A stretch of DNA of 14,942 nucleotides from contig JAZDDX010000023.1 of NCBI GenBank assembly GCA_043809315.1, positions 1-14,942 on the forward strand, in the 5' to 3' direction. This DNA is from Pseudomonadota bacterium. GTDB taxonomy: Bacteria > Bdellovibrionota_G > JALEGL01 > DATDPG01. Under the pieces are notes generated by a model. The model was not told the origin of the DNA, ran no database searches, and saw only the letters and a program-made list of their open reading frames with translations. Position numbers and translations under genes: made by a program. Shown one piece after another: positions 118 through 14,942 of the stretch (position 1 is the stretch's first letter; each line of letters begins with the position of its first letter).

Positions 118-136
118 AATTGGCGGGGCGGACGGG
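118..136. repeat. att site (distal copy; displaced 3' fragment of tRNA-Asp)
   Basis: Identical to 9159-9177. The reverse complement is CCCGTCCGCCCCGCCA+ATT, the tRNA 3' end including CCA. Confidence 0.95.
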
Positions 137-253
137 TTAAGAAGTCCGCCTCGTCAACGTGTTGTAGTTGTTTGTATATCATTGAAACCATTAACAATCA
201 CCCGATCAGCTTTGGAAACGAGAAGACTCTGATACCCCTGTTTGGACGTGTCC

Positions 254-272
254 CGCTGGGTAGGCTGAGTAG
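254..272 (+). repeat. Putative integrase arm-type binding sites (tandem CGCTGGGTAG / GGCTGAGTAG)
   Basis: The same motif occurs as a tandem pair at the other end of the element (9090-9109), in the same orientation, so the two pairs would flank the core in attP. Confidence 0.7.
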
Positions 273-310
273 GAGTGTCTTGCCACTATAGCTCGGTTCA
301 TCCAATATGA

Positions 311-338
311 TTGCCTAAGTATACAAATTATGTATACT
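311..338 (+). promoter_or_regulatory. sigma70-type promoter of abiEi-abiEii with overlapping palindromic operator
   Basis: TTGCCT (311-316), 16 bp, TATACT (333-338). A perfect inverted repeat AGTATACA-N5-TGTATACT (318-338) covers the -10. AbiEi antitoxins are known to autorepress through promoter inverted repeats. Confidence 0.75.
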
Positions 339-350
339 GACGGATGCGTA

Positions 351-1148
351 ATGGATAGTCGGGTAAAATCGCTCAGTGCTTTTGTGACCGATCTCCAGGC
401 CAGGGGGCGCTACACGTTTACGCTGAAAGACATTCAGAACCTAAAAGGACGGAATGGCCTCAGCAATAAGATCGCGCTTCAGCGTTTGAAACAACAGGGG
501 CGCATTGTGAGCCCCAGACGGGGCTTTTTTGTCATTGTTCCGGTCGAATACCGATCGACGGGTTCTCCTCCCATTACGTGGTTCGTGGACGATTTGATGC
601 GATATCTTGGCCAACCGTACTATGTGGCGTTGCTGTCGGCCGCTGCCCATCATGGGGCCGGCCACCAGCAACCGATGGTGTTTAAGGTCATGACGGACCG
701 GCCGATCAAACCCTCGAAGAAAGGGAGAATGCGCATCGAATTTCATGGGTCAGGGCAAATCCGAAAAATCCCGTGTGTGGAGGTGCAGACGGAAACGGGA
801 AAGATGAGCATCTCGACACCGGAGGCCACGGCTTTCGATTTGGTCCGATATGCCGCCGTGTCGGGAGGTATTGGCCATGTCGCCACCGTTCTCTCTGAAT
901 TGGGTGAGGTCATTGACGCCCAACGCCTCGGCAAACTTTGCTCGCTGTATGCTCTTCCGGAAGTGCAGCGCCTGGGATTCATTCTGGAGCGGATCGGACG
1001 AAAGAACCTGTCCGACGTTTTGGGGAAGTGGTTCTCGCGACAACGGAAACGTGAAACACCGTTAGTCGTAGAAAAATCGAGGGGCCGGGCTAAGGCCGAC
1101 TCTCGTTGGAAAGTCGTTCCGAACGAAATCCTGGATCTGGACATATGA
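351..1148 (+). CDS. abiEi: Type IV toxin-antitoxin antitoxin, AbiEi family transcriptional regulator
   Basis: N-terminal wHTH-like region (GRYTFT...LQRLKQQGRIVSPRRGFFVIVP) and family motifs YYVALLSAAAHHGAGHQQP and STPEATAFDLV. ATG 351 is preferred because ATG 330 lies inside the promoter. ATGA overlap with the next gene. Confidence 0.88.
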   Translation: MDSRVKSLSAFVTDLQARGRYTFTLKDIQNLKGRNGLSNKIALQRLKQQGRIVSPRRGFFVIVPVEYRSTGSPPITWFVDDLMRYLGQPYYVALLSAAAHHGAGHQQPMVFKVMTDRPIKPSKKGRMRIEFHGSGQIRKIPCVEVQTETGKMSISTPEATAFDLVRYAAVSGGIGHVATVLSELGEVIDAQRLGKLCSLYALPEVQRLGFILERIGRKNLSDVLGKWFSRQRKRETPLVVEKSRGRAKADSRWKVVPNEILDLDI

Positions 1149-1990
1149 TTCCCCGCGCAAACATCACCGAATGGCGGAATTCCGCTCCCTGGCCCTTGGA
1201 TGTTCAGGTGGAACAGGATCTCGTGTTGACGCGTGCGCTGGTCGAGATTTTTCGGAAACGTGTTCCACGGGAGGAGTTGGTTTTTCGAGGTGGTACGGCG
1301 ATCCATAAGCTTTTTCTTCAACCGGCCGCCCGATACTCGGAAGACCTCGATCTGGTCCAGGTCAAGGCCTCACCGATCGGCGCGGTTACCGATGCGATCC
1401 GGGAAGCGCTGGATTCCTGGCTGGGAGTTCCCAAATGGAAAGCGGGGCAGGGGCGCTTTACGCTCTTCTATCGCTTTGAAACGACGGCACAGCCCGTGCA
1501 AAGCATGCGCGTGAAGATTGAAATCAATACGCGAGAGCATTTCGACGTGTTTGGAATCGAGCCCCACAACCTGGCTGTCTCCAACCCTTGGTATTCCGCT
1601 GATGCGGACGTGCCGGTGTACGGTTTGGACGAACTCCTGGGGACAAAATTGCGGGCGCTGTATCAACGAAAGAAGGGGAGAGACCTGTTTGATTTATACG
1701 TCGCGGGTCGGCGTAAGCTCTCTACCCCCGAGCGTGTAATCGAGAGTTTTAACGCCTACATGAGGCACTCGAAGACGAGCGTTTCCCGGGCGGAGTTTGA
1801 AGCGAATCTGGCGGGAAAGCTGAAAGACCCGTTGTTTCGTGAGGACGTACCGCCTTTGCTTGCGGAAGGAACCGACTGGGACATCGAGGAGGCTGCCTCT
1901 TTCGTTTTGAAATCGCTTATATCGCAACTGCCCGGTGAACCGTGGAAGGGGAATAAGCCGACCCGAAGGGCAAAGGTCCAAGCGAAGTAG
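1145..1990 (+). CDS. abiEii: Nucleotidyltransferase toxin, AbiEii/AbiGii family
   Basis: Motifs QVEQDL, FRGGTAIHKLF, RYSEDLDL, KIEINTRE and KLRALYQRKKGRDLFDL. ATG 1145 overlaps the abiEi stop (ATGA). Confidence 0.92.
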   Translation: MIPRANITEWRNSAPWPLDVQVEQDLVLTRALVEIFRKRVPREELVFRGGTAIHKLFLQPAARYSEDLDLVQVKASPIGAVTDAIREALDSWLGVPKWKAGQGRFTLFYRFETTAQPVQSMRVKIEINTREHFDVFGIEPHNLAVSNPWYSADADVPVYGLDELLGTKLRALYQRKKGRDLFDLYVAGRRKLSTPERVIESFNAYMRHSKTSVSRAEFEANLAGKLKDPLFREDVPPLLAEGTDWDIEEAASFVLKSLISQLPGEPWKGNKPTRRAKVQAK

Positions 1991-2010
1991 TTTTCTCGCG
2001 CGACAATCTC

Positions 2011-2060
2011 CTTGCTTTCCGGATATTACGTAGTAATCAATATACAAGAATGTGTGACAC
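2011..2060 (+). promoter_or_regulatory. Conserved promoter/operator block, copy 1 (upstream of the relaxase operon)
   Basis: CTTGCTTTC-N19-AATATACAAGAATGTGTGACAC aligns without gaps to 7492-7541 (34/50 identical; 9/9 and 19/22 in the two blocks). Confidence 0.6.
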
Positions 2061-2064
2061 TGTA

Positions 2065-2317
2065 GAGATGGGTGATCTCCAAGGTCTTGGCCGTTTTGAC
2101 CCTACCCCCTCCACCTCCTTCCTGGAGGTTCACTTTGGGTTCATGACAGGCTTCATTCTTGTTTCACGGGTGGGAACTATTTGGTGAACTTCGGGAAAAA
2201 TCGTAACTATCCGAAGGGACAACCAAAAGGCCGTGTCCCTGAACTTATTTCTTCTCGCTTTTTCCGCCGACCACACTCCCCCTACCATGTAAAAAAATAA
2301 TGGGGGACTGTGGTCGG
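2065..2317. other. Hairpin-rich noncoding region; candidate oriT/origin
   Basis: Inverted repeats at 2065-2079, 2079-2090, 2113-2129, 2189-2216 and 2215-2240, plus a 16-bp stem (2267-2282/2302-2317) with one mismatch, directly upstream of a relaxase-like gene. Confidence 0.45.
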
Positions 2318-3363
2318 TGCAAGAAAGCTCGAAGGTTGAAATGGGGCACGGTGAGGGAGAGTCGGAAGGGTCAGAATCGGTAGAAAAAGGGTTGAAGATG
2401 GATACAGAGAACGAAGAAAGAAAAGAAGAGCCAGGATTGAAAAGAGGGAAGGTCGGTAAAGGGAGGCGGCTGAGTTTATCCGAGAGGGGACGGGAGATCC
2501 TCAAAACCCTGTTTTCGGTCCGGCTGATCGAACGGGATGACCTGTACCGGCTTTGGTACTGGAATCGGACGATGCGTGCTCTCCTCAAGGAAATGCAGGA
2601 GCTGGAGGAACAGGGATTAGCCACCTCTCCCCTGGGTCGCTGCCGGTGTCCTAAGGTCTGGACGTACACGGAAACCGCACGAAGGTGCATTGGTTCCGCC
2701 TGTTTTACGGGATCGATCGCTCACGCAGGAAGCGAATTGGGTCTTCCGACAAGGGCGCATCAATGCTTAATCGCCAAAGCGTTCGTGGAATGGGTGGGAC
2801 GAGGGGAACTGGAGGACCGGCGTAAAAGGCTCAACTCTTTGGTTTGGCAGGATGGGCTCAAGAGGAAGATCCATTACACGGAGGGATATGGGGGTAAATA
2901 CGTCATTCCGGACGTTTGGATTGGAGGATATGACGGAGTACGGGCTTTTTTGGAGGCGGATCGAGGAACCGAATCGATACCCAGGCTTTCGGAGTACTTG
3001 CGGAGTTACTACAGGATGTTCACCCGGGAATATCCCACCGGGTTACGACCAGCCATTATCTATGTTTGCGAGGATTGGAACCGGAAGGAACTGATTGCCG
3101 AAACATTCCAAAAACTTGAAAGCTGGGAGCGGGACCAGTTCGAGTTTTTCGGTGTCTTGCATGTGACCGAATGCGGTCCCGGACTCGATCGGGTCCTGGA
3201 TTGGGATCGGAAGCGGCGAGTTTCTCCGCCAGCTCGAGGGCCTTCCATTCCTACAGAAAAACAAAACCCCCCAAATCCCAAAATCGAGAAAATAGTTCAT
3301 ACACCGTACGGCTGGCTTGCGGATCTTACCCAGCCTCGCACGGAACATAAACGCTCATCTTGA
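2317..3363 (+). CDS. Replication-relaxation (Replic_Relax) family protein; putative relaxase
   Basis: wHTH-like N-terminus (LSERGREILKTLFSVRLIERDDL), a conserved His (AHQCLI) and a PD-(D/E)xK-like core YVIPDVWI...FLEADRGTES. The true start may be ATG 2341 or 2398. Confidence 0.72.
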   Translation: MQESSKVEMGHGEGESEGSESVEKGLKMDTENEERKEEPGLKRGKVGKGRRLSLSERGREILKTLFSVRLIERDDLYRLWYWNRTMRALLKEMQELEEQGLATSPLGRCRCPKVWTYTETARRCIGSACFTGSIAHAGSELGLPTRAHQCLIAKAFVEWVGRGELEDRRKRLNSLVWQDGLKRKIHYTEGYGGKYVIPDVWIGGYDGVRAFLEADRGTESIPRLSEYLRSYYRMFTREYPTGLRPAIIYVCEDWNRKELIAETFQKLESWERDQFEFFGVLHVTECGPGLDRVLDWDRKRRVSPPARGPSIPTEKQNPPNPKIEKIVHTPYGWLADLTQPRTEHKRSS

Positions 3364-3432
3364 TGGGCCGAAGAACAAAAGAAGACGAAAGAGCAAGTAT
3401 CTGTTACAGATTTCCAACGGAAAGGAACGACC

Positions 3433-3639
3433 TTGAACCCATCGAATGCCGTCCCCTGGAAGGGGGAAAAACGAACGAAACAGCTCTGGCTTCCGGTTGA
3501 GCCGACGCTTTATGCCGCGATCCGGGAACGGACCGAGGAGACGGGGTTCTCGACCGTTTCGGACTATGTCCGAACGTTGATTGTCAAAGACATGATCGAA
3601 GGAAAACCCATTGTCGGGGGGAAAGGACGGCGGAAATGA
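3433..3639 (+). CDS. Ribbon-helix-helix (CopG/Arc/MetJ-like) DNA-binding protein
   Basis: Strand-helix-helix pattern KQLWLPVEPTLYAAIRERTEETGFSTVSDYVRTLIVKDM. AAAGGA SD upstream of the TTG start; ATGA coupling to the next gene. Confidence 0.7.
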   Translation: MNPSNAVPWKGEKRTKQLWLPVEPTLYAAIRERTEETGFSTVSDYVRTLIVKDMIEGKPIVGGKGRRK

Positions 3640-3923
3640 AAAAAACCAAAACCTCCGAAAGCGCTCGAAATCCAGCAGGGCGGTTGTTCGCCCTTACCCG
3701 CTACCAGGACAAGGTGATCGCGGATCTCGTCCAGGCAAAAGCGGAAAAAGAAGGGTTAAGCGTGGCTTCGCTTCAGAAAAAGCTCATGTATGAGGCGCTC
3801 CACAAGGACACAGACCTCAGCAAAGCCTTTCAAGGCGCGCTATCGGAAGAAATGAAGAAGAAAGGCGGGCGAGGCGGTATTCTCCAGCGGCTGAGAAATC
3901 TGCGTAAGAAATCTTCCGGTTAG
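3636..3923 (+). CDS. Small basic protein, probable second RHH protein
   Basis: ALTRYQDKVIADLVQAKAEKEGLSVASLQKKLMYEAL fits an RHH helix-G-x-S-helix pattern. Translationally coupled to the upstream gene. Confidence 0.55.
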   Translation: MKKTKTSESARNPAGRLFALTRYQDKVIADLVQAKAEKEGLSVASLQKKLMYEALHKDTDLSKAFQGALSEEMKKKGGRGGILQRLRNLRKKSSG

Positions 3924-4462
3924 TGATTCGGACGATGACCATAATTCGCTGCACGAAAAGACTCCTTGACGAACTTGGTCTGAGGATTTCGGACCTTCCC
4001 GACGAAGGTCCTGTCGAAGGACTTCTTGGAGAATGGTACTGCAACTTGCGGCGATTCGATCGACGCAAGGTTCTCCTGTTTACGCATCCTGATACCCTGT
4101 TTTCTTTCTGGGTCCCTGGCATCAAGAAGGCCGATCTTGAAGATTTTGGAATGCTGTTCTTCACGCATCTTGCGAAAAATCTTGCCCATGAAGGGTTTCC
4201 AGAACCGGTGATCCGCCGGGCAATTGAAACCGATGAAATACGCATCGGAAAGACTTCGAGTCGAAGTGTTCTCGGCTCCATGAACGACTATGCGTACCTC
4301 AGTGAATACATGATTGCCTCGGCAGGCGGCTTGCAGCGGGCCGACATCCTCGAAATCAACAAAAAGCTAAATCGGACTCCGATGAGCGGGATTGGGATGA
4401 ATTTTGCAATCGAAGCCCTGACGAAGCGCCTCCTGGGAGGACCCGCGAAGATCGCCGGGTAG
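3923..4462 (+). CDS. DUF6933-like hypothetical protein
   Basis: IRCTKRLLD...LLGEWYCN...RRKVLLFTHPDTLF...KTSSRSVLGSMND...LNRTPM resembles DUF6933 proteins (recognised from memory). The start may be ATG 3935. Confidence 0.65.
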   Translation: MIRTMTIIRCTKRLLDELGLRISDLPDEGPVEGLLGEWYCNLRRFDRRKVLLFTHPDTLFSFWVPGIKKADLEDFGMLFFTHLAKNLAHEGFPEPVIRRAIETDEIRIGKTSSRSVLGSMNDYAYLSEYMIASAGGLQRADILEINKKLNRTPMSGIGMNFAIEALTKRLLGGPAKIAG

Positions 4463-4583
4463 ATCTGGCATTGATGGTGTGAAGAACAGACTTCATTTGT
4501 CGCGTTTGTCGCATTCGTGGCATATAGGTCCCACTTCGAACTAGCTCCCAAAGAGTTAAGTGGCTGAAACTACTAGGTTACTG

Positions 4584-4600
4584 TTGGCATAGACAATGCT
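4584..4600 (+). promoter_or_regulatory. Candidate sigma54 (-24/-12) promoter of the DGR target gene
   Basis: TTGGCATAGACAATGCT has exact GG-N10-GC spacing and is close to the YTGGCACG-N4-TTGCW consensus. An alternative extended -10, TGGTATAAC, lies at 4611-4619. Confidence 0.55.
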
Positions 4601-4647
4601 AATAAAGGGATGGTATAACGCGCAGCGCCTTAACAGGGAGAAGAAAA

Positions 4648-5262
4648 ATGTGGGTTAAACGAATCTTTGTTTTTTCAATGGTTTTGGGTCTCGGCATCGG
4701 TTGGGCTTATGCCGGTTCCATCGACCGCACAAAAAAGCTGTGTGGGTTGGTTGGAATGGATGATGAACGAATCAACGACTGTTCTCAAAAAAACGAAGAA
4801 GAGGATGCGACTCGAATTGGGAAATCGAAGTTTCGTTGGAAGTTATTGACCCGCACGATTTCAAAATCGGGTGACGTTTTGTCCTTCTATAAAGACAAGG
4901 CGAGCGGAAAGGTCTGGACCGATCCGCTCAGTATGGATTCAAAGGATGACAAAACCTGGGAAGATGCAAAGAAGGCTTGTTCGACGTACCACCCCGATCA
5001 TTCCAAAACTGGAACCACGATGGGCGACGGTTTTCCCCGCACAGCCTTCGAATTGCCATCTGCGGAGGATTATAAACTCGCGGAAGACCATGGGATTCGT
5101 GATGCGCTGGAAGATACGATGAAAGATCAAGAGGGTGATTCCAGATGGTGGTGGACCTCTTCGCCCTACGTCGATCTCGCGGAGCACTTCCGTGGCTCCC
5201 ATGGCGGCATCAGCCCCTACCCCCGTGCGTATCCATATGCCGTTCGTTGCGCCGCGCGCTAG
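4648..5262 (+). CDS. DGR target protein: exported DUF1566/Lcl-like (C-type lectin fold) protein with C-terminal VR
   Basis: Signal peptide MWVKRIFVFSMVLGLGIGWAYA. Motifs DKASGKVW, TWEDAKKAC, LPSAED, WWTSS and a terminal AVRC. The last ~35 codons align with the TR. GGGAG SD upstream. Confidence 0.9.
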   Translation: MWVKRIFVFSMVLGLGIGWAYAGSIDRTKKLCGLVGMDDERINDCSQKNEEEDATRIGKSKFRWKLLTRTISKSGDVLSFYKDKASGKVWTDPLSMDSKDDKTWEDAKKACSTYHPDHSKTGTTMGDGFPRTAFELPSAEDYKLAEDHGIRDALEDTMKDQEGDSRWWWTSSPYVDLAEHFRGSHGGISPYPRAYPYAVRCAAR

Positions 5263-5269
5263 GCGTGGG
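5157..5269 (+). repeat. DGR variable repeat (VR)
   Basis: Ungapped 113-bp alignment to 5888-6000 with 23 mismatches, 19 of them at TR adenines. G/C-only tract GCGCCGCGCGC (5249-5259) near the 3' end. Confidence 0.96.
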
Positions 5270-5297
5270 GTAGTAGTCATTTGAAGATTGGATGATT

Positions 5298-5317
5298 GTC
5301 GGGCCGAATGGCCCGAC
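5298..5317 (+). other. DGR target-recognition hairpin/cruciform downstream of VR/IMH
   Basis: Perfect 8-bp GC-rich stem GTCGGGCC-GAAT-GGCCCGAC with a 4-nt loop, 28 bp after VR. It is absent after TR and matches the geometry of the Bordetella phage BPP-1 cruciform. Confidence 0.85.
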
Positions 5318-5338
5318 GAAATCGATGCGAGGCTCCGT

Positions 5339-5716
5339 GTGGCGCGATATCAGCATTTACCGCTCTATCAATTCTGTTACGCGCTCACACGGGAACTCTA
5401 CCGGCTTCGAATCAAACTTCCGAAGACGTTGAAACATGACTTGGGGAGCACGCTCTGCTCGTCCGCTCTCCATTGTTTGAAGCTCATCATTGTGGCGAAC
5501 GGCCAGCCCGACAAAGAACCGGCTCTTCGTTCGTTGCGCCTTGAGATTGAATGTCTGTGGACCTATTCACGGCTTTTATATGATCTCCGAGGCATCAGCG
5601 CCGGAGAATTCAAGGTGCTGTCGGAAAAGCTTTCGGAGGTTGCGTCGCAAGCTCAGGCTTGGCTTCGGTGGGAACGAAAACAAAAGAGCAACATCGTTGA
5701 AAGGAAAACCGAGTAG
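5339..5716 (+). CDS. avd: DGR accessory variability determinant (Avd-like four-helix-bundle protein)
   Basis: (M)ARYQHLPLYQ...LPKTLKHDLG...RLLYDLRGIS...EVASQAQAW fits the Avd/four-helix-bundle pattern, in the usual position between VR and TR. GTG 5339 with a GAGG SD is preferred over TTG 5288, which would run through the cruciform. Confidence 0.88.
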   Translation: MARYQHLPLYQFCYALTRELYRLRIKLPKTLKHDLGSTLCSSALHCLKLIIVANGQPDKEPALRSLRLEIECLWTYSRLLYDLRGISAGEFKVLSEKLSEVASQAQAWLRWERKQKSNIVERKTE

Positions 5717-5887
5717 GTCTATGTTTCCGTCGTTGGCGGCCGGAATTTGAAGGTCTACGGATCTTCAAAGAGTGCTTCTAACGACCCACGGGAGTCCGGC
5801 CTGTTTTTTTTGAACAGGCGAAAAGTCACGAATCCAACATCCCCCGAGCGGGCCTGTTGGAGGGAGTTGAACGGGACGCCATGAATG

Positions 5888-6000
5888 CTCTTCGCCCGAC
5901 GACGATAACGCGGAGAACTTCAATGGCAACAATGGCGACATCAACAACGACAACCGTGATAATCATAATGCCGTTCGTTGCGCCGCGCGCTAGGCGTGGG
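5888..6000 (+). repeat. DGR template repeat (TR), functioning as ncRNA template
   Basis: AAC/AAT-rich copy of VR with 10 AAY codons and 29 adenines in 19 sense codons, all at codon positions 1-2, so no stop codon can arise. Confidence 0.96.
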
Positions 6001-6011
6001 ACGTGCCAACC

Positions 6012-6054
6012 CGAAGGGGGCTACGAAGAAGAAATCGCTTTGTAGTCCCCTTTG
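6012..6054 (+). other. 17-bp RNA hairpin 3' of TR, overlapping the RT stop codon antisense
   Basis: CGAAGGGGGCTACGAAG (6012-6028) pairs with CTTTGTAGTCCCCTTTG (6038-6054): 14 Watson-Crick and 3 G-U pairs on the + strand. Confidence 0.7.
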
Positions 6055-7289
6055 ATCTTCAGGCGAGCGCGTGAAATTCCAAGTTCGCGCGGAATGGCTC
6101 GGTCCTCGGTGGTGCGGTTGATGAGACGATCTAACGATGCCTTTCGCAACCGATAGGTCTGTCCGTGTCCCAGATATCCGATTCGGGAATTGATTCTCGC
6201 GAGCTTTCTTTCGAGTGCTTTGGACCGGGCTGGAAATGCAAGCGGGTGCCGGACTCCCGGCTCGGAAAACGAAAAACGTTCAAGGTCGCGAATCTCCTTC
6301 ACCCACTCCCATTTCTTTCGGGGTTTTGAGAAAATTCGCAGAGGTTGGGAAGGGTAGGATTCCTGGCGCAGGCGGTATCCCAAATATTCGATCCCTTGGT
6401 TCAAGCAAGTTAACCGCGTTTTTTTCGCATTCAAATTCTGAAATCGGTTTTTCCGGAGCCATCTGTCGATGGGGTCCGCCATCCCCTGAAGTCGATTCGG
6501 ATCGAGATCCAGCAACATGAGATCATCCATGTATCGAAGATAAGCTCCCGGTTTCAAGGTCCGGCAGATCCAGTGGTCCAATGCGTTCAAATAGACGTTG
6601 GCACCGAACTGGCTCGTGAGATTCCCGATGGGAATTCCTTGATCAACGTTTCGGTTGAACCATGTTTTTTCGGGCAGGATAAGGTTCCAATCTTCCTCCG
6701 ATCCCTTTCGAACCGCGCCGATCCGCGCATCATGGTTGTACACAATTCGAATCAGATCTCGAAGCTTGGGATCGGTCGCGGTGCCTAACAATAAATCGCG
6801 AAGAGTCGGGCGATGAATCGTGACAAAGAAAGAAGCGATGTCGAGCTGTAAAGCCCACACGGGCAAGCGGCCTCCTTGGCTCACGGACCGGACCTTCTTC
6901 TGCAGGTAGCGTAGGGCTCCGTGGGTGCCTTTCCCAATTCTGCAAGCAAAACTCGAATGAACAAACCTCCGCTCCCAAGAAGAGGTCAATCGACTTACGA
7001 TCAGATGGTGCACGATGCGATCCCGGAAATGAGCCGCAAAAATTTCTCTCGGTTTGGGGTGTTTCACCACGAAACAAACCGAAAGGAGAGGTTTGTAACG
7101 GTTCTGATGGATCTCCCGATGAAGTTTTAAGATGTTTTCACCCAACCGGGCTTCGAATGTCGTTTGGTGGAAGCTGGCCTGTTTGCCGAGGCGACAGGTT
7201 TGATATGCCGTCAATAAATCTTTGAACGTGGGCCAGGATGTGGATTGACCGGAAAGGGAACGTGTAGTGGATCGCGGCCGACTGTTCAT
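6021..7289 (-). CDS. DGR-type reverse transcriptase, oriented opposite to target-avd-TR
   Basis: KPREIFAAHFRDRIVHH, FACRIGKGTHGAL, LDIASFF, the DGR signature GIPIGNLTSQ, catalytic YLRYMDD, GIEYLGY and C-terminal SRIGYLGHGQTYRLR. The frame is open to 7484, but ATG 7289 (422 aa) best fits the RT N-terminus. Confidence 0.95.
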   Translation of the reverse strand: MNSRPRSTTRSLSGQSTSWPTFKDLLTAYQTCRLGKQASFHQTTFEARLGENILKLHREIHQNRYKPLLSVCFVVKHPKPREIFAAHFRDRIVHHLIVSRLTSSWERRFVHSSFACRIGKGTHGALRYLQKKVRSVSQGGRLPVWALQLDIASFFVTIHRPTLRDLLLGTATDPKLRDLIRIVYNHDARIGAVRKGSEEDWNLILPEKTWFNRNVDQGIPIGNLTSQFGANVYLNALDHWICRTLKPGAYLRYMDDLMLLDLDPNRLQGMADPIDRWLRKNRFQNLNAKKTRLTCLNQGIEYLGYRLRQESYPSQPLRIFSKPRKKWEWVKEIRDLERFSFSEPGVRHPLAFPARSKALERKLARINSRIGYLGHGQTYRLRKASLDRLINRTTEDRAIPRELGISRARLKIKGDYKAISSS

Positions 7290-7491
7290 CTTTGGGTTTT
7301 CTATCTCTTCAACGCAGTAGACCCAAGATTTTTGATCGGTCGTTTGCTTCTTCCACATCTGAAGTGATTGAAAAACCACAGTTTTTTCGATGCGCTGGAA
7401 TCCGTTGATGTTGAGGATGAGAAAACCAAGAAAGATAACGGTCGTGAGGGGGGTCCTTCGGGTGTGACATCTTGCCGGGTCCAAGAATCCG

Positions 7492-7541
7492 CTTGCTTTC
7501 GTAAACTAGAAATGTAAGTAATACACAAGAATATGTTACAC
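7492..7541 (+). promoter_or_regulatory. Conserved promoter/operator block, copy 2 (between divergent RT and xis-int)
   Basis: CTTGCTTTC-N19-AATACACAAGAATATGTTACAC, matching 2011-2060. Confidence 0.6.
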
Positions 7542-7580
7542 AATCCGCTAGCCGGGGAGGTGGCTACGCGATACGCGTGC

Positions 7581-7838
7581 ATGGAAGAAACTGGCGAGTT
7601 GTTCTCGAAAGGTCTAAAAAGCGTTCATTCGGTCGAAAAGTCTTCCCCGGCCGGGATCTTTGAAAACAGAATATACACGGTAGAAGACGCCGCTAGGCTC
7701 GCCAACGTCTGCTGCAAGACCATCTACAGATTGGTTGCTGCAAGACAATTGCGCGTGAAAAGATTGCCTGGCGGTCGAAGTATCAGAATCCTCGGTTCCG
7801 AGCTGATCGGGTGGATGAAAGGGGGCAACCGTGCCTAA
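7581..7838 (+). CDS. xis: Excisionase-like helix-turn-helix protein
   Basis: IYTVEDAARLANVCCKTIYRLVAARQLRVKRLPGGRSIRI is an HTH_17/excisionase pattern. It overlaps the integrase start. The start is uncertain (7533, 7560 or 7581). Confidence 0.8.
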   Translation: MEETGELFSKGLKSVHSVEKSSPAGIFENRIYTVEDAARLANVCCKTIYRLVAARQLRVKRLPGGRSIRILGSELIGWMKGGNRA

Positions 7839-9099
7839 AAAATTCGACCCGATCGCTTACAAAGGGAAAAAGACAATCGCCGTAAAAATGGACCATCCCG
7901 GAGTCTGTCAACTCTGGGATTGGGATGAGAGAAAGGGGCGTTATTTCCCCCGAACCCAGGGAAATCGTTACTACGCGTATCGGAAGGTGGGCCTCACGCA
8001 ATCTTCCAAATATCTGAGCAGCTACGAGGAAGCCAAACGATGGCGTGATTCCGGGTACCTCGTGGAAGAAGAGGAAAAAGCACGGGGACTGACGTTTGCC
8101 GAAGTGAAGGCGCGCTATTTCGAGCACCTGAAAGGCAGAGTCAAACCCTCATCGATCGAAAGCTACGAGAACAACGTCCGGCATTTGGGATTTTTTGACG
8201 CGATTCCCGTAACCGAGATCACGACAAGGACGGTGGATAGCTGGATCACCGCGATGAAAAAACCGGAATATTTAGCGACTCAGCACAGTACGCGCATCAC
8301 GTATGAGCATGACCTGAGACTGTTGAGACAGATTCTTCAGTACTACGGTGATTATGTAGATCCGGACGGCAGGTTTCAGTTGCCGATCAAGAAGCGTCAC
8401 AATACGGATGTCATCGTGGACGTCGTGAAGTATCGGGAGCGCCTGGATCAGCGGCGCTCGAAATTCATGACGAGAGAGGAGAATGAGCACTTCTTGGAAG
8501 AACTCAGGAAGCGGTCGTTCCAGTCAATGCTGGATCGTTTCGTCTACCTGGCTGCGTTCATTTATTTGAGGACAGGAGCCAGAATCGGCGAGATCTGCGC
8601 TTTAAATTGGCGTGATCTGAATCTCAAGACGGGCGCAGTTGTGATCTCGAAGACGGTTCACTTTTCGAGGAGAAAGGGGCAAGTTTCGTACGTCTCTTCC
8701 TCGACGAAGACTAAGAAAACGAGAGAGCCGGTTATTCAGGACATGGAACTTCTCCGCGAACTCAGAGAATTCCGTTTGAGTTCGGGAAGGGGCGAGGGGT
8801 TGATCTTGAGCGAAGATGGGCAAACCCCATTGGAGTATAGGTCGATCCAATTCCGGATGGATAAGGTGTTTAAGGCTCTTGCGTTGCCGTTTCGAAGCAC
8901 GCACATCCTGAGACACAGCTTTGCCACGGATTTTTTGCGCGTGACGAAGAATCCTCTCGCTCTTCAGGCCATTCTTGGGCACAGCGATTTTCGCCAGACC
9001 CAAGAGTACGCAAAGCTCACGGATGACCTCGTGAAGGATGCTTCACGGGAATACGCCAAGAGCTTTTTGAAGAAGCCGGACGAAGTTGCCGCTGGGTAA
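7831..9099 (+). CDS. int: Tyrosine recombinase / phage-type integrase
   Basis: Catalytic set: R in TGARIGEICAL, K in TKTKK, HILRH, LGHSD and Y in TQEYAK. Adjacent to the att site and tRNA. Confidence 0.95.
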   Translation: MPKKFDPIAYKGKKTIAVKMDHPGVCQLWDWDERKGRYFPRTQGNRYYAYRKVGLTQSSKYLSSYEEAKRWRDSGYLVEEEEKARGLTFAEVKARYFEHLKGRVKPSSIESYENNVRHLGFFDAIPVTEITTRTVDSWITAMKKPEYLATQHSTRITYEHDLRLLRQILQYYGDYVDPDGRFQLPIKKRHNTDVIVDVVKYRERLDQRRSKFMTREENEHFLEELRKRSFQSMLDRFVYLAAFIYLRTGARIGEICALNWRDLNLKTGAVVISKTVHFSRRKGQVSYVSSSTKTKKTREPVIQDMELLRELREFRLSSGRGEGLILSEDGQTPLEYRSIQFRMDKVFKALALPFRSTHILRHSFATDFLRVTKNPLALQAILGHSDFRQTQEYAKLTDDLVKDASREYAKSFLKKPDEVAAG

Positions 9100-9109
9100 C
9101 GCTGGGTAG
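9090..9109 (+). repeat. Putative integrase arm-type binding sites (CGCTGGGTAA CGCTGGGTAG)
   Basis: Tandem 10-mer matching 254-272. Confidence 0.7.
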
Positions 9110-9127
9110 AACCCCTTTCCGGGGTTC
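9109..9127. terminator. Hairpin between convergent int and tRNA-Asp; possible terminator
   Basis: GAACCCC-TTTCC-GGGGTTC is a perfect 7-bp stem, but the U-tract is weak. Confidence 0.45.
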
Positions 9128-9158
9128 GGTTCTCAATCATCTCAAGAAGTTAAATAAG

Positions 9159-9177
9159 AATTGGCGGGGCGGACGGG
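9159..9177. repeat. att site (tRNA-proximal copy)
   Basis: Identical to 118-136. Confidence 0.95.
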
Positions 9178-9238
9178 ACTCGAACCCGCGACCTCATGCG
9201 TGACAGGCATGCGTTCTAACCAGCTGAACTACCGCCCC
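9162..9238 (-). tRNA. tRNA-Asp (GTC)
   Basis: Reverse complement GGGGCGGTAGTTCAGCTGGTTAGAACGCATGCCTGTCACGCATGAGGTCGCGGGTTCGAGTCCCGTCCGCCCCGCCA: 77-nt cloverleaf, anticodon GTC, encoded CCA. Confidence 0.97.
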
Positions 9239-9865: not shown

Positions 9866-10483
9866 TTACGTTCCGGCTTGGATGAGCCGGACGATGTTTT
9901 GAGCGGCCTCACGCAAGGCCGACGTGTCATCCCCGTCATTCGCGAAGATCTTCTCCGCGAACTTCTTGTACGGATCGATATGCTTCCGGTGCATCGGCAG
10001 GACGAAGGTCTGGATGTTCGTCCAAGCGACGTCGTACGTCTTCCCCCGCTCGTTCAGATCACGCCGTAAGATTCTCCGGACGCGGACCTCGTCGGGGCAG
10101 TCGACGAAGAACGTATGGTCCAACGCCCTCCGGATCTCTTCCAGAGTCAAAAGGAACAACCCCTCGACCAGGATGATATGGGTCGGCGCCTGGGGGCGCG
10201 AGTGGCCGGTTCGGGAACAGCTGGCATAGTCGTAGGTCGGAACGCGGATCGATTCTCCGTTGCGCAATCGTTTGAGATCCTGGAGGAAGTGCTCCTCGTC
10301 GATTGCATCCGGACAGTCGAAATTTACCTTGAGGCGCTCTTCGGTCGAGAGAGGGCCGATGTCGCGGTAGTAGGAGTCCTGGGAGAGGACGGAGGCCTCG
10401 TCTCCGAGGAGGTCTTTCAGGTGAGCGCAGAGGAGGGTCTTCCCGGCTGCGGAGCCTCCACAGATCCCGATGAGGGTCGGCAT
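9866..10483 (-). CDS. udk: Uridine kinase
   Basis: IGICGGSAAGKT P-loop, QDSYY, NFDCPDAID, ILVEGLF, RRILRRDLNERG and PMHRKHIDP. ATG 10483 gives 205 aa. Confidence 0.9.
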   Translation of the reverse strand: MPTLIGICGGSAAGKTLLCAHLKDLLGDEASVLSQDSYYRDIGPLSTEERLKVNFDCPDAIDEEHFLQDLKRLRNGESIRVPTYDYASCSRTGHSRPQAPTHIILVEGLFLLTLEEIRRALDHTFFVDCPDEVRVRRILRRDLNERGKTYDVAWTNIQTFVLPMHRKHIDPYKKFAEKIFANDGDDTSALREAAQNIVRLIQAGT

Positions 10484-10547
10484 GTCGGGAAGTTCGTATA
10501 CTGGAGCCTGGCAGGGGGCGCAAGATTCGTGGCATAGTTTGTCCGCC

Positions 10548-11576
10548 ATGCGAAAACTCGCCCTTCTTTTTGTCTCCTCCATTCTTTCGACGGCTGTTTC
10601 GGCGGCCGAGAAATCGTCTCCACCGGCAGCGAACTCCCCCCTCTGGATCGCGAGCCGGAGCGCCGTAGTGGCCAAAGGACTCCGGTTCATCCGACAAGAG
10701 GGGGGGAAGATCCGGGATCCGAAACTGTCGGCCGCGGTGAAGGCGCTTCTCGATTCCCCACAGCCGAGTTTCGTTTCCAAAGAAGGGAAGGGGACACAGC
10801 CGTTGCTCTCGGCCCCGGGAGGTTCCTCGAATTCGCACCATGGTTATCCCGGCGGCTGGGCTCTGCACACGGCGTTCAACCTCCGGTCGGCTCTCGCGTA
10901 CGCGGAAAACTACGAGAGGACCGGAACGGGGGATCGCCTGCGCTGGGACTACGTTCGGGCCGCCGCGATTCTTCACGACATCATGAAGCCGTTTACGTTT
11001 GTGTGGGGGGTCGATGGAACCGCGGCCCCCGAGCCGCAGATGGCGGGGACCTCGTTGCATCACATTCTCGCGATCACGGAAGTGCTGCATCGGGGGCTCC
11101 CGAACGACTTCGTTTTCGTACTGGCAGCGGCGCACGACGCTCCCGACGGGAAGGGGGTCCCGATGTTGATCAAGTATCTTCAGGCGGCCTACGGCCTGCT
11201 CGGGCGGGATTCGGTAGCGGAGAAGATGCTCGTTTCACCCAAGAAAGGATCGTTCACTCTCGCGTTCCAGCCGCCAGCCGAGGCATTTATCCATTACCTA
11301 TCGGATCAAAACTGGGTTTTTTCGACTGAGGCGATCACGGTTCTGACTCCGGTATTTCGTGGGATCTATGACGGAGACGCCTGCCTGAACACTGGCCTTT
11401 GCACGTTTCAGGCGTTTCGGGACCTGCTCTTTTCGGAGAATGCGGAGACGAGCCTTTACGGTCTTTGGGCGATCGGCGGGAGGGACGCTCTGAAGCCGGC
11501 TTTGGATAAGGTTGGTGGGCGGTGCAGGATTCGAACCTGCGACCCCCTGCGTGTAAGGCAGGTGCTCTCCCGCTGA
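10548..11576 (+). CDS. Exported HD-domain metal-dependent phosphohydrolase-like protein
   Basis: Signal peptide MRKLALLFVSSILSTAVSA; motifs HHGYPGGWALHT, ILHDIMKP, HHIL and HYLSD. The 3' end overlaps tRNA-Val antisense. Confidence 0.75.
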   Translation: MRKLALLFVSSILSTAVSAAEKSSPPAANSPLWIASRSAVVAKGLRFIRQEGGKIRDPKLSAAVKALLDSPQPSFVSKEGKGTQPLLSAPGGSSNSHHGYPGGWALHTAFNLRSALAYAENYERTGTGDRLRWDYVRAAAILHDIMKPFTFVWGVDGTAAPEPQMAGTSLHHILAITEVLHRGLPNDFVFVLAAAHDAPDGKGVPMLIKYLQAAYGLLGRDSVAEKMLVSPKKGSFTLAFQPPAEAFIHYLSDQNWVFSTEAITVLTPVFRGIYDGDACLNTGLCTFQAFRDLLFSENAETSLYGLWAIGGRDALKPALDKVGGRCRIRTCDPLRVRQVLSR

Positions 11577-11587
11577 GCTAACCGCCC
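11513..11587 (-). tRNA. tRNA-Val (TAC)
   Basis: Reverse complement GGGCGGTTAGCTCAGCGGGAGAGCACCTGCCTTACACGCAGGGGGTCGCAGGTTCGAATCCTGCACCGCCCACCA: 75 nt, anticodon TAC. Confidence 0.97.
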
Positions 11588-14132: not shown

Positions 14133-14154
14133 GGGATCAGGGTATAATATAACC

Positions 14155-14942
14155 ATGGCCGTGGGTCGAGCCCCTTTCCTCTTGCTCCTTGCGGTGCTCG
14201 CGGCCGGATGCAAGAACACGCAGGTCAACTGGGTCGGCATCTTCTCGGGCGATCCTTCGAGCGGGTTCCGTTGTTACACCGGAGGTCTCGGATGGCTCGC
14301 CTGTTCGGATACCGACGGCGATGGCGAACCGGACCGAACCGACGGCGGTCATCCGTTCACCCCCAAACCCTCGGAGGGGAGCGACGACGCGGCTCCGGCC
14401 CCTCCCGCTGGAGCGATTCCCGACACCGGTGAAGATCTGGATGGACCGCTTCGTGGGTTCGATCTCGACGTGTTCGACTCCTCGAGGGGGTCGACGTGGG
14501 AAACCCGGCAGGCAAGCCACACCCATCTGTTTGACAACCAAAACTCTCATTACAATGTCGTGGATTTTTTCTCCGATACGAACTTCGGTTTCGCGCCGGC
14601 GGTCGAGGGGTGCACGGATCTCACCTTCCGGGTCCGGCATGCCGATCGAGGGAGCGGGGCATTGGATCTCACGTTCAACGGGGTGCCAAAAAAATTTCGG
14701 GCCCCCAATCGTTTCAGCGACACGTTCGGGTATGCGAACGGCGACTTCATTCTGCACGAAAGCGGACCGGTGACGGTGTTCCGGTGGCAGCCGAATCGGA
14801 TCGGGGTACTTGCCGGGACGCAGCCGAGCGTCGTGCAGAAAGACACCGCCGACCGGCACGGATCGTTCACGGTCCAGGTCTTCTGTGGGAGCACTCGAGT
14901 CTGGGAGTTCGCCGCGTACGAGCACGTGGCGGAGGGGGCGGA
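14155..14942 (+). CDS. Putative lipoprotein, truncated at the window edge (not in the ORF track)
   Basis: Open frame from ATG 14155 to the end: MAVGRAPFLLLLAVLAAG-C lipobox, DTDGDG motif and a Pro/Ala/Asp-rich linker. TATAAT at 14143-14148. Confidence 0.8.
   Translation, partial: MAVGRAPFLLLLAVLAAGCKNTQVNWVGIFSGDPSSGFRCYTGGLGWLACSDTDGDGEPDRTDGGHPFTPKPSEGSDDAAPAPPAGAIPDTGEDLDGPLRGFDLDVFDSSRGSTWETRQASHTHLFDNQNSHYNVVDFFSDTNFGFAPAVEGCTDLTFRVRHADRGSGALDLTFNGVPKKFRAPNRFSDTFGYANGDFILHESGPVTVFRWQPNRIGVLAGTQPSVVQKDTADRHGSFTVQVFCGSTRVWEFAAYEHVAEGA

Follow-up and report, generated by a model that had tools for sequence, protein, structure and literature searches.

Diversity-generating retroelements (DGRs) are known from phages, plasmids and large integrative and conjugative elements (ICEs), and the locus described here raises the question of whether a DGR can also be the cargo of a very small mobile island. 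The stretch analysed, called the window throughout, is the whole of contig JAZDDX010000023.1 (C23, 14,942 bp) of the source assembly G000, a genome bin of 2.42 Mb in 44 contigs that is 96% complete. The original prediction, made from the letters of the window, was that positions 118 to 9,177 hold a tRNA-integrated mobilizable element whose main cargo is a complete DGR. We consider it fairly probable that this segment (element A) is an integrative island at the 3′ end of the tRNA-Asp(GTC) gene, excising as a 9,041-bp circle and most likely mobilizable, that is, an integrative and mobilizable element (IME). Four other genomes of the phylum (G001 to G004) are named below, of which G002, G003 and G004 belong to the same bacterial family as the source genome.

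Element boundaries and the tRNA-Asp site

The predicted element is real and clearly delimited, being bounded by a 19-nt direct repeat, AATTGGCGGGGCGGACGGG, found exactly at 118-136 and at 9159-9177 (both + strand), with a start-to-start spacing of 9,041 bp. With up to 3 mismatches allowed, the repeat occurs 2 times in the window against 0.01 expected, and two or more occurrences were seen in 0 of 200 shuffles. The left copy is the distal one (attL), while the right copy (attR) consists of the 3′ 16 nt of the tRNA-Asp(GTC) gene, CCA included, plus 3 nt beyond. This tRNA (9162-9238, − strand), the integration target, was called by ARAGORN and scored 72.2 bits with the Rfam tRNA model. Since the right repeat copy is the 3′ end of the tRNA, the tRNA is left intact by integration. 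The G+C content is 52.0% between the repeats, compared to 59.5% in the right flank and 59.7% genome-wide.

As had been proposed, the element carries its own integrase and excisionase within these exact att repeats. The integrase is of the tyrosine type (7831-9099, + strand; Pfam Phage_integrase 2.4e-18 plus SAM_3; PHROG_1 9.3e-46) and lies behind an HTH_17 excisionase-type gene (7533-7838, + strand; Pfam 2.6e-9; TIGR01764 30.7 bits, above the cut-off of 28.8). The best full-length relatives of the integrase within the phylum are 34% identical, and a pattern scan of metagenome and viral (IMG/VR) contigs returned no relatives.

A second contig, C33, also from this assembly, shares positions 1-136 of the window with 100% identity, that is, through the last base of attL, and diverges at base 137, the inner edge of the repeat. 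Past this base, C33 enters a different element (B) whose first gene is a Phage_rep_O gene with 75% DNA identity to the rep_O of an island on contig C17, described below. Note that C33 stops 459 bp into element B (C33:1-478), and the remainder of B is absent from the bin. The 19-nt repeat has only 3 copies across the assembly, whose contig ends commonly overlap by 141 nt. Since a 19-nt repeat alone cannot make an assembly branch, the flank-att-A and flank-att-B junctions both exist in the reads. Judging from the assembly, the tRNA-Asp site must be differently occupied among cells, or B must precede A in some of them. With different elements occupying the att site in the sampled population, exchange may be ongoing.

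On C33 the left flank runs into 34 kb of ordinary chromosomal genes (58.9% G+C). Thus, in this haplotype, the element is not a piece of a larger prophage or ICE, in line with the compact element originally proposed.

The 3′ side of the tRNA-Asp gene was also inspected in the relatives of the same family, where it is followed by a serine recombinase in G002 (C71), by a DUF4258 gene in G003 (C3) and by ORFs without assignment and an IS110 element in G004 (C1). Within this bacterial family, the tRNA-Asp gene looks like an insertion hotspot. No homologue of the C33 left-flank proteins adjoins tRNA-Asp in any of these three genomes; synteny is not kept among them, and so no empty site can be reconstructed from the relatives.

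The DGR cassette and its relatives

The cassette occupies the centre of the element in the order target gene with its variable repeat (VR), Avd, template repeat (TR) and then, on the opposite strand, the reverse transcriptase (RT). The target gene (4648-5262, + strand) encodes 204 aa with a signal-peptide-like N-terminus and a C-terminal variable domain putatively of the Lcl_C/FGE type (FGE, formylglycine-generating enzyme); VR (5157-5269, + strand) ends 7 nt beyond its stop codon. The Avd accessory protein (5288-5716, + strand) matched the PHROG family 'Avd protein of DGR' at 7.9e-19, with NCBIfam DivGenRetAVD (4.9e-12) and Pfam bAvd (2.3e-7) both under their cut-offs. TR (5888-6000, + strand) is abundant in in-frame AAC and AAT codons. 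The RT gene (6021-7289, − strand; Pfam RVT_1 3e-17; PHROG 4.3e-76) belongs to an ORF that is open up to 7484, the starts of relatives being near 7289, and its translation shows the IGNLTSQ and YMDD motifs, which we take to be diagnostic of DGR-type RTs.

An adenine-specific TR-to-VR pattern is present. TR and VR, of 113 nt each, have 23 differences, 19 of them at the 30 adenines of TR (hypergeometric P 1.8e-10); the first two codon positions account for 21 of the 23. Moreover, the 3′ terminal 33 nt of VR and TR are identical, GC-rich and similar in kind to the sites for initiation of mutagenic homing (IMH-like), and a GC-rich hairpin, GTCGGGCC-GAAT-GGCCCGAC, lies at 5298-5317 (+ strand), 29 nt past VR (z -2.7 for 5236-5330). 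The claim that the element carries a complete DGR was therefore correct for the RT, Avd, TR/VR and adenine signature alike, and its layout had to be amended, with the RT placed on the strand opposite TR.

Genome-wide there is one TR, one VR and one RT. Since TR has no other match in the genome and the RT is alone, the cassette is self-contained on the element. Remote DGR targets were considered and rejected, VR being the sole other TR match in the genome. We also rejected a defence RT or a retron, as the NCBIfam Drt and retron scores were far under their cut-offs and the TR/VR/Avd set is diagnostic of a DGR.

A search for relatives of the target protein returned the target itself only, and it had no Pfam match even at E 10. 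The approximately 140 C-terminal residues do align with the Lcl_C-bearing target of G003 (E 7e-5) and with 6 more targets, and the resulting 7-target profile matched the FGE-type protein SUMF2 in the PDB at 8.6e-4. The AlphaFold models of the target (n=2) had pLDDT values of 41 and 48, too poor for use.

The nearest DGR was found in G003, with an RT 64% and an Avd 74% identical to those of the element; identity to the RTs of G003 and G001 spans 62-64%. The G003 cassette is flanked by AsmA/YdjM-type and TPR genes and has neither an integrase nor a relaxase in its vicinity. Its only close companions, directly upstream of its RT (L023:9892-10638), are a gene similar to RHH2, one of the small backbone genes of the element (57% over 37 aa), and an Xre-type helix-turn-helix (HTH) gene; from their sequences, these could be either a trace of the island backbone or a DGR-linked regulator.

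The sources of the 13 closest RT loci (45-64% identity) are one genome of the same family and metagenome-assembled genomes (MAGs) that are either assigned to Bdellovibrionota/Oligoflexia or unclassified. Twelve of the 13 have a convergent RT, with Avd downstream of it on the other strand; the idea that the opposite-strand RT is an assembly artefact was rejected on account of this shared layout. The clade of RT relatives (L029-L041, public MAGs, mostly Bdellovibrionota/Oligoflexia) has the RT convergent on TR, Avd and target, with targets of the Lcl_C type, and several of its loci adjoin Gp49/HTH toxin-antitoxin pairs or conjugation genes.

Across 80 RT loci, we found no homologue of the Replic_Relax, RHH1, DUF6933 or Xis proteins of this element, and one each of a weak integrase match, an AbiEi, an AbiEii and an RHH2-like gene. 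Six further RT loci were scanned for the ORFs nearest the RT (86 of 106). None of these 86 ORFs encodes a tyrosine integrase; a TraC/VirB4-like gene was present at one locus, a coupling-protein gene at one and Gp49/HTH toxin-antitoxin pairs at two, and two loci looked chromosomal. Since the RT relatives lack this backbone, the DGR cassette moves between carriers, this island being one of them. Taken with the islands described next, the DGR is best read as a cargo that was acquired once by one member of an island family.

The Replic_Relax protein, the hairpin and the sibling islands

The relaxase-like gene of the original prediction proved to be a match to the MobC-type Replic_Relax family (2398-3363, + strand; PF13814 3e-9, 37.7 bits against a cut-off of 25.3), which has a PD-(D/E)XK fold. 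Its ORF is open from 2317, with a likely start at 2398. The residues P171-D172 and E186-x-D188 are nearly invariant among 12 Replic_Relax relatives, and the N-terminal part has a weak likeness to MarR-type winged HTH chains (E 0.006-0.05). Two paralogues in the source genome score higher with PF13814 (67.7 bits for the one on C17 and 51.3 bits for the one on C24). A weak PHROG match to 'replication initiation protein' was also obtained (E 0.0074). Characterised MobC proteins include MobC of CloDF13 and TraX of pAD1. According to the parts of PMC5357655 consulted, CONJscan scores PF13814 as MobC and the family occurs in streptococcal IMEs; passages of PMC3424549 assign it the PD-(D/E)XK fold and link it to plasmid replication as well as to relaxation.

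A search of metagenome contigs with the single protein returned no relative, and a two-sequence profile matched in 0 of 16 other genomes of the phylum at 1e-5. An exhaustive search of 1.84 billion representative proteins, using a hidden Markov model built from this protein and its C17 paralogue, gave 402 relatives at E<=1e-3 and 6 at E<=1e-30.

Directly 5′ of the Replic_Relax coding region is an extended hairpin of approximately 120 nt (2224-2345, + strand), with arms at 2259-2282 and 2302-2325 and the loop motif CTACCATGTA. The segment is 72-83% identical to two segments on contig C7, where the neighbouring AbiE proteins are not detectably similar to those of the element by tblastn. A covariance model made from these three copies found five sites in the source genome, each on or beside an island with an integrase or Replic_Relax gene, and four weaker sites in three other genomes, so that 4 of 17 genomes of the phylum were positive, against 0 of 134 genomes outside it. 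The hairpin is directly 5′ of the Replic_Relax coding region on both C23 and C17, and at the 3′ end of the gene on C24. The weaker copies lie directly behind a Phage_rep_O gene (G001:C17), beside a tyrosine integrase and an MqsRA toxin-antitoxin pair, approximately 500 nt upstream of an integrase adjoining tRNA-Ser(tga), and near a DUF4258 gene.

In an independent MAFFT/RNAalifold alignment of the nine copies from the 4 genomes, covariation was strong, with compensatory changes in 12 of 18 stem pairs. Hairpin cells were paired in 95.7%; shuffling gave 72.6%, with none of the 500 shuffles reaching the observed value, and sliding the partners gave no more than 53%; these figures include weaker copies retrieved by a model that already encodes the same structure. 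The hairpin corresponds to no Rfam family, the only match being one to mir-463 at chance level (E 0.09). We infer that it may be a cis site of the island family, a candidate origin of transfer (oriT) or of replication.

In support of such a family, the source genome contains at least five further islands or island fragments with parts of the same backbone and other cargo. On C17 (approximately 41650-58300), an island combines Fic, Phage_rep_O, the hairpin, Replic_Relax, ion-transport/antiporter and trehalose cargo, RHH2, a duplicated RHH1 and an integrase; it adjoins an ISL3 transposase. C7 carries two of these elements. The larger (C7:29002-38235, 9.2 kb) lies between copies of an 18-nt repeat from the 3′ end of tRNA-Ser(tga) and holds the hairpin, AbiEi/AbiEii, an integrase and arsenic-resistance genes, its cargo comprising a DsbD-like protein, ArsP with a low-molecular-weight phosphatase, an ACR3-type SBF protein and MerR. 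A second, partial copy of its distal repeat, at 27700-27717, is nested with the first and suggests an older tandem insertion. The smaller is a 3.0-kb islet (C7:15383-18427) delimited by copies of a 21-nt repeat from the 3′ end of tRNA-Ser(gga). Its sole contents are the hairpin, an AbiE pair and an ORF of 220 aa, and it lacks an integrase; within the family, it may have decayed or may depend on functions supplied in trans. The C4 island encodes Xis, Int, RHH1, RHH2, a TraG/TrwB-like coupling protein, DUF6088 and HipA, and C24:2679-5234 contains an integrase, the third Replic_Relax gene and a weak copy of the hairpin. Element B on C33, with its Phage_rep_O gene, is counted among these islands or fragments as well.

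By gene content, the source genome holds a family of small islands integrated at tRNA genes, and the element is one of its members; what they share is the hairpin, the ribbon-helix-helix (RHH) pair, AbiE and/or Replic_Relax. The idea that Replic_Relax, AbiE and a DGR together mark a family did not hold, since the backbone siblings in the source genome carry other cargo and the 80 RT loci yielded no Replic_Relax homologue.

The remaining backbone genes are as follows. The AbiE pair was recognised correctly: AbiEi, the antitoxin and transcriptional regulator (330-1148, + strand; Pfam AbiEi_1 5.2e-30; PADLOC AbiEi 3.7e-88), and AbiEii, the nucleotidyltransferase toxin (1145-1990, + strand; Pfam AbiEii 5.4e-37; PADLOC 3.1e-100), whose start codon overlaps the AbiEi stop codon (1145-1148). 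Translation of AbiEii from 1145 agrees with a PADLOC match that begins at residue 1. As in the known AbiE type IV toxin-antitoxin and abortive-infection systems, both components are present, adjacent and overlapping, with strong profile matches, and nothing about the pair is unusual compared with those systems. An imperfect 26-nt inverted repeat spans the AbiEi start codon (300-356, with a promoter-like site at 311-338) and is a possible AbiEi operator, of a kind suited to autoregulation.

Two RHH genes had been proposed, and the evidence differs between them. RHH1, similar to NikA (3433-3639, + strand), has a profile match, although a sub-threshold one (Pfam 4.8e-5, 23.9 bits, under the cut-off of 27), and has homologues on the C4 and C17 islands. 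RHH2, a small basic protein (3636-3923, + strand), has no significant profile match (RHH_5 E 0.073) and is assigned by pattern only; its homologues occur on C4, C17 and C7 and beside the G003 DGR. The next gene (3923-4462, + strand) encodes a DUF6933 protein (Pfam 1.2e-39), which also matched the PADLOC candidate defence family PDC-S63 (4.3e-17). DUF6933 clusters were found in the ESM Atlas, some fused to a PRiA4_ORF3 domain, and the PDB held no relative. From these matches, the gene may be a second, defence-type cargo gene.

Outside the element, two long flank ORFs at 10470-11576 (+ strand) and 14137-14925 (− strand) had no Pfam match. A tRNA-Val gene at 11513-11587 is overlapped by one long flank ORF, which may not be a gene.

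Mobility, rival explanations and known systems

The family scans of the window covered 16 ORFs, alternative-strand ORFs included, against Pfam and PHROG at E<=0.01. Capsid, tail, terminase, other virion or packaging families and type IV secretion system (T4SS) families gave no match, as the original prediction had stated for capsid, tail and T4SS genes, and the Pfam scan found no coupling-protein gene on the element. As a mobilizable island, the element would work as follows. The tyrosine integrase and the HTH_17 excisionase, from their homology and the anatomy of the locus, would recombine the 19-nt core. The PD-(D/E)XK Replic_Relax protein, probably with the RHH proteins, would act on the upstream hairpin and thereby initiate transfer, for which another element would provide the mating pore; this helper T4SS is hypothetical. 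AbiE, as a toxin-antitoxin or abortive-infection module, would stabilise the element. Finally, the RT and Avd would copy the TR transcript with adenine errors, replacing VR at the 3′ end of the gene for the small secreted protein, putatively of the Lcl_C/FGE type.

Several results weigh against this account. Among the three att copies of the assembly, none represents the excised circle or the empty site. Searches of the 96%-complete bin with PF03135, PF12846 and PF19044 gave no VirB4/TraC-type ATPase; all that was seen was a TraG/TrwB coupling-protein-like gene on the C4 island. Plasmids and ICEs are frequently missing from genome bins. The Replic_Relax protein is, by sequence, very divergent: tblastn gave no match in 72,556 plasmid records at E 1e-3 or in 50,697 phage records, and a word-based protein search found no relative. 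The three strongest hairpin copies all adjoin AbiE pairs, and two of them are on islands without Replic_Relax, so that hairpin and Replic_Relax are not exclusively linked. Moreover, sibling islands pair Replic_Relax with Phage_rep_O, which suggests replication, a role for the protein as plausible as that of a relaxase, and 4 of the 23 TR/VR differences lie away from adenines.

The association with Phage_rep_O leads to the rival that we take most seriously and that stands not far behind, although we give it well under an even chance: an integrated, plasmid-like replicative island, in which Replic_Relax and the hairpin would be the initiator and origin of the excised circle and not a relaxase and its oriT, with intercellular spread, if any, by another route. 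The C17 gene order (Phage_rep_O, hairpin, Replic_Relax), the hairpin directly behind Phage_rep_O in G001:C17, and the opening of element B, at the same att site, with Phage_rep_O would all suit this explanation, as would the lack of a T4SS in the bin, the weak PHROG match noted above and the tie of PF13814 to plasmid replication and relaxation in parts of PMC3424549. However, no Rep_O gene is present on the DGR island; RHH1 is similar to NikA, a protein that binds oriT, if below the Pfam cut-off; and PF13814 is scored as MobC by CONJscan, as stated in sections of PMC5357655. The two C7 hairpin islands, which have neither Rep_O nor Replic_Relax, are a better fit to a site used in trans than to a self-contained replicon.

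We rate as less probable still that the element has lost the ability to move alone and persists as a remnant, or as a single module within a larger composite (tandem) island at tRNA-Asp, with the repeats recording past integration. Element B shares the left flank and att with it, so tandem arrays are possible at the site; there are foreign genes at tRNA-Asp in three relatives (G002, G003 and G004), the distal repeat of the C7 island at tRNA-Ser(tga) is present in two nested copies, and the assembly is without circle or empty site. Against this, none of the backbone ORFs is disrupted, both repeats have the same sequence, and the flank-att-A junction present on C23 means that A occurs without B on its left. 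A phage satellite of the PICI type (phage-inducible chromosomal island), packaged by a helper phage instead of being transferred by conjugation, seems to us very improbable. A size of 9 kb, tRNA integration, an int-xis pair and the lack of structural genes are all reminiscent of such satellites, but none of the 16 ORFs had a PHROG match to a terminase small subunit, capsid-remodelling, primase or AlpA-type family (E<=0.01), the integrase had no IMG/VR relative in the pattern scan and Replic_Relax had no tblastn match in the phage records. We retain a mobilizable island as the preferred explanation.

A broader proposal, which we put forward tentatively and think possible but doubtful, is that these elements form an undescribed family of very small tRNA islands confined to one little-sampled phylum, whose common currency is the hairpin, with Replic_Relax acting in trans, and of which one member captured a whole DGR. 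If this is true, the islands that have only the site ride on relatives encoding Replic_Relax, and hypermutation of a secreted protein is a 9-kb portable trait.

DGRs on ICEs are already known; what is new here is a family of modular islands that have a structured site in common, and the presence of a DGR on one of them. As described in portions of PMC5758913, a Legionella pneumophila ICE carries a DGR (LdtA), and the sections consulted of a preprint (bioRxiv 10.1101/2024.11.15.621889) report Bacteroides ICEs in tRNA-Lys with DGRs, including excision and conjugative transfer. As far as these accounts go, the likeness lies in a cargo DGR on a site-specifically integrated transferable element, diversifying a surface or exported protein of the C-type-lectin type. 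Those carriers are large elements that encode a T4SS and transfer themselves, whereas this element has 9 kb and no mating-pore or coupling-protein gene, encodes a PD-(D/E)XK Replic_Relax protein instead of a canonical relaxase, and has its RT and TR in convergent orientation.

The streptococcal IME_Class_8, as outlined in parts of PMC5357655, is similar in its compact module of an integrase and a PF13814 protein, a relaxase there and a candidate one here, and it depends on the pore of a helper, as this element would. In contrast to the serine integrase and own VirD4 coupling protein given there for IME_Class_8, the element has a tyrosine integrase with an excisionase and no coupling protein; in addition, its Replic_Relax lacks BLAST-level similarity to any plasmid record and its cargo is a DGR.

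The cassette shares with the DGR of Bordetella phage BPP-1 (mtd-avd-TR-brt), in the portions of PMC5758913 that describe it, a 3′ VR, Avd, TR, adenine-specific differences, a 3′ segment that is GC-rich and the same in both repeats, and a hairpin further downstream. It differs in its RT, which is on the opposite strand and convergent with TR, in its carrier, an island instead of a phage, and in its target, a small secreted protein instead of a tail fibre. In the same portions, Wu et al. state that TR and RT may occupy different strands (PMC5758913). Among the papers listed in our literature search, none described a small mobilizable island with a DGR; the search did not extend to supplementary tables such as Table S1 of PMC5758913 (cassette architectures), where this layout could appear.

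For ICEs, experiments have demonstrated that "evolvability" spreads horizontally. An island of 9 kb that has an integrase and, as its only substantial cargo, a self-contained DGR would be near the smallest known DGR vehicle, and its existence would mean that modular islands exchange DGRs as cargo. Moreover, the hairpin offers a concrete candidate for the cis site of the poorly understood PD-(D/E)XK 'replication-relaxation' proteins. Finally, the two elements joined to one att site in the assembly are a natural system for island turnover in an uncultured phylum.

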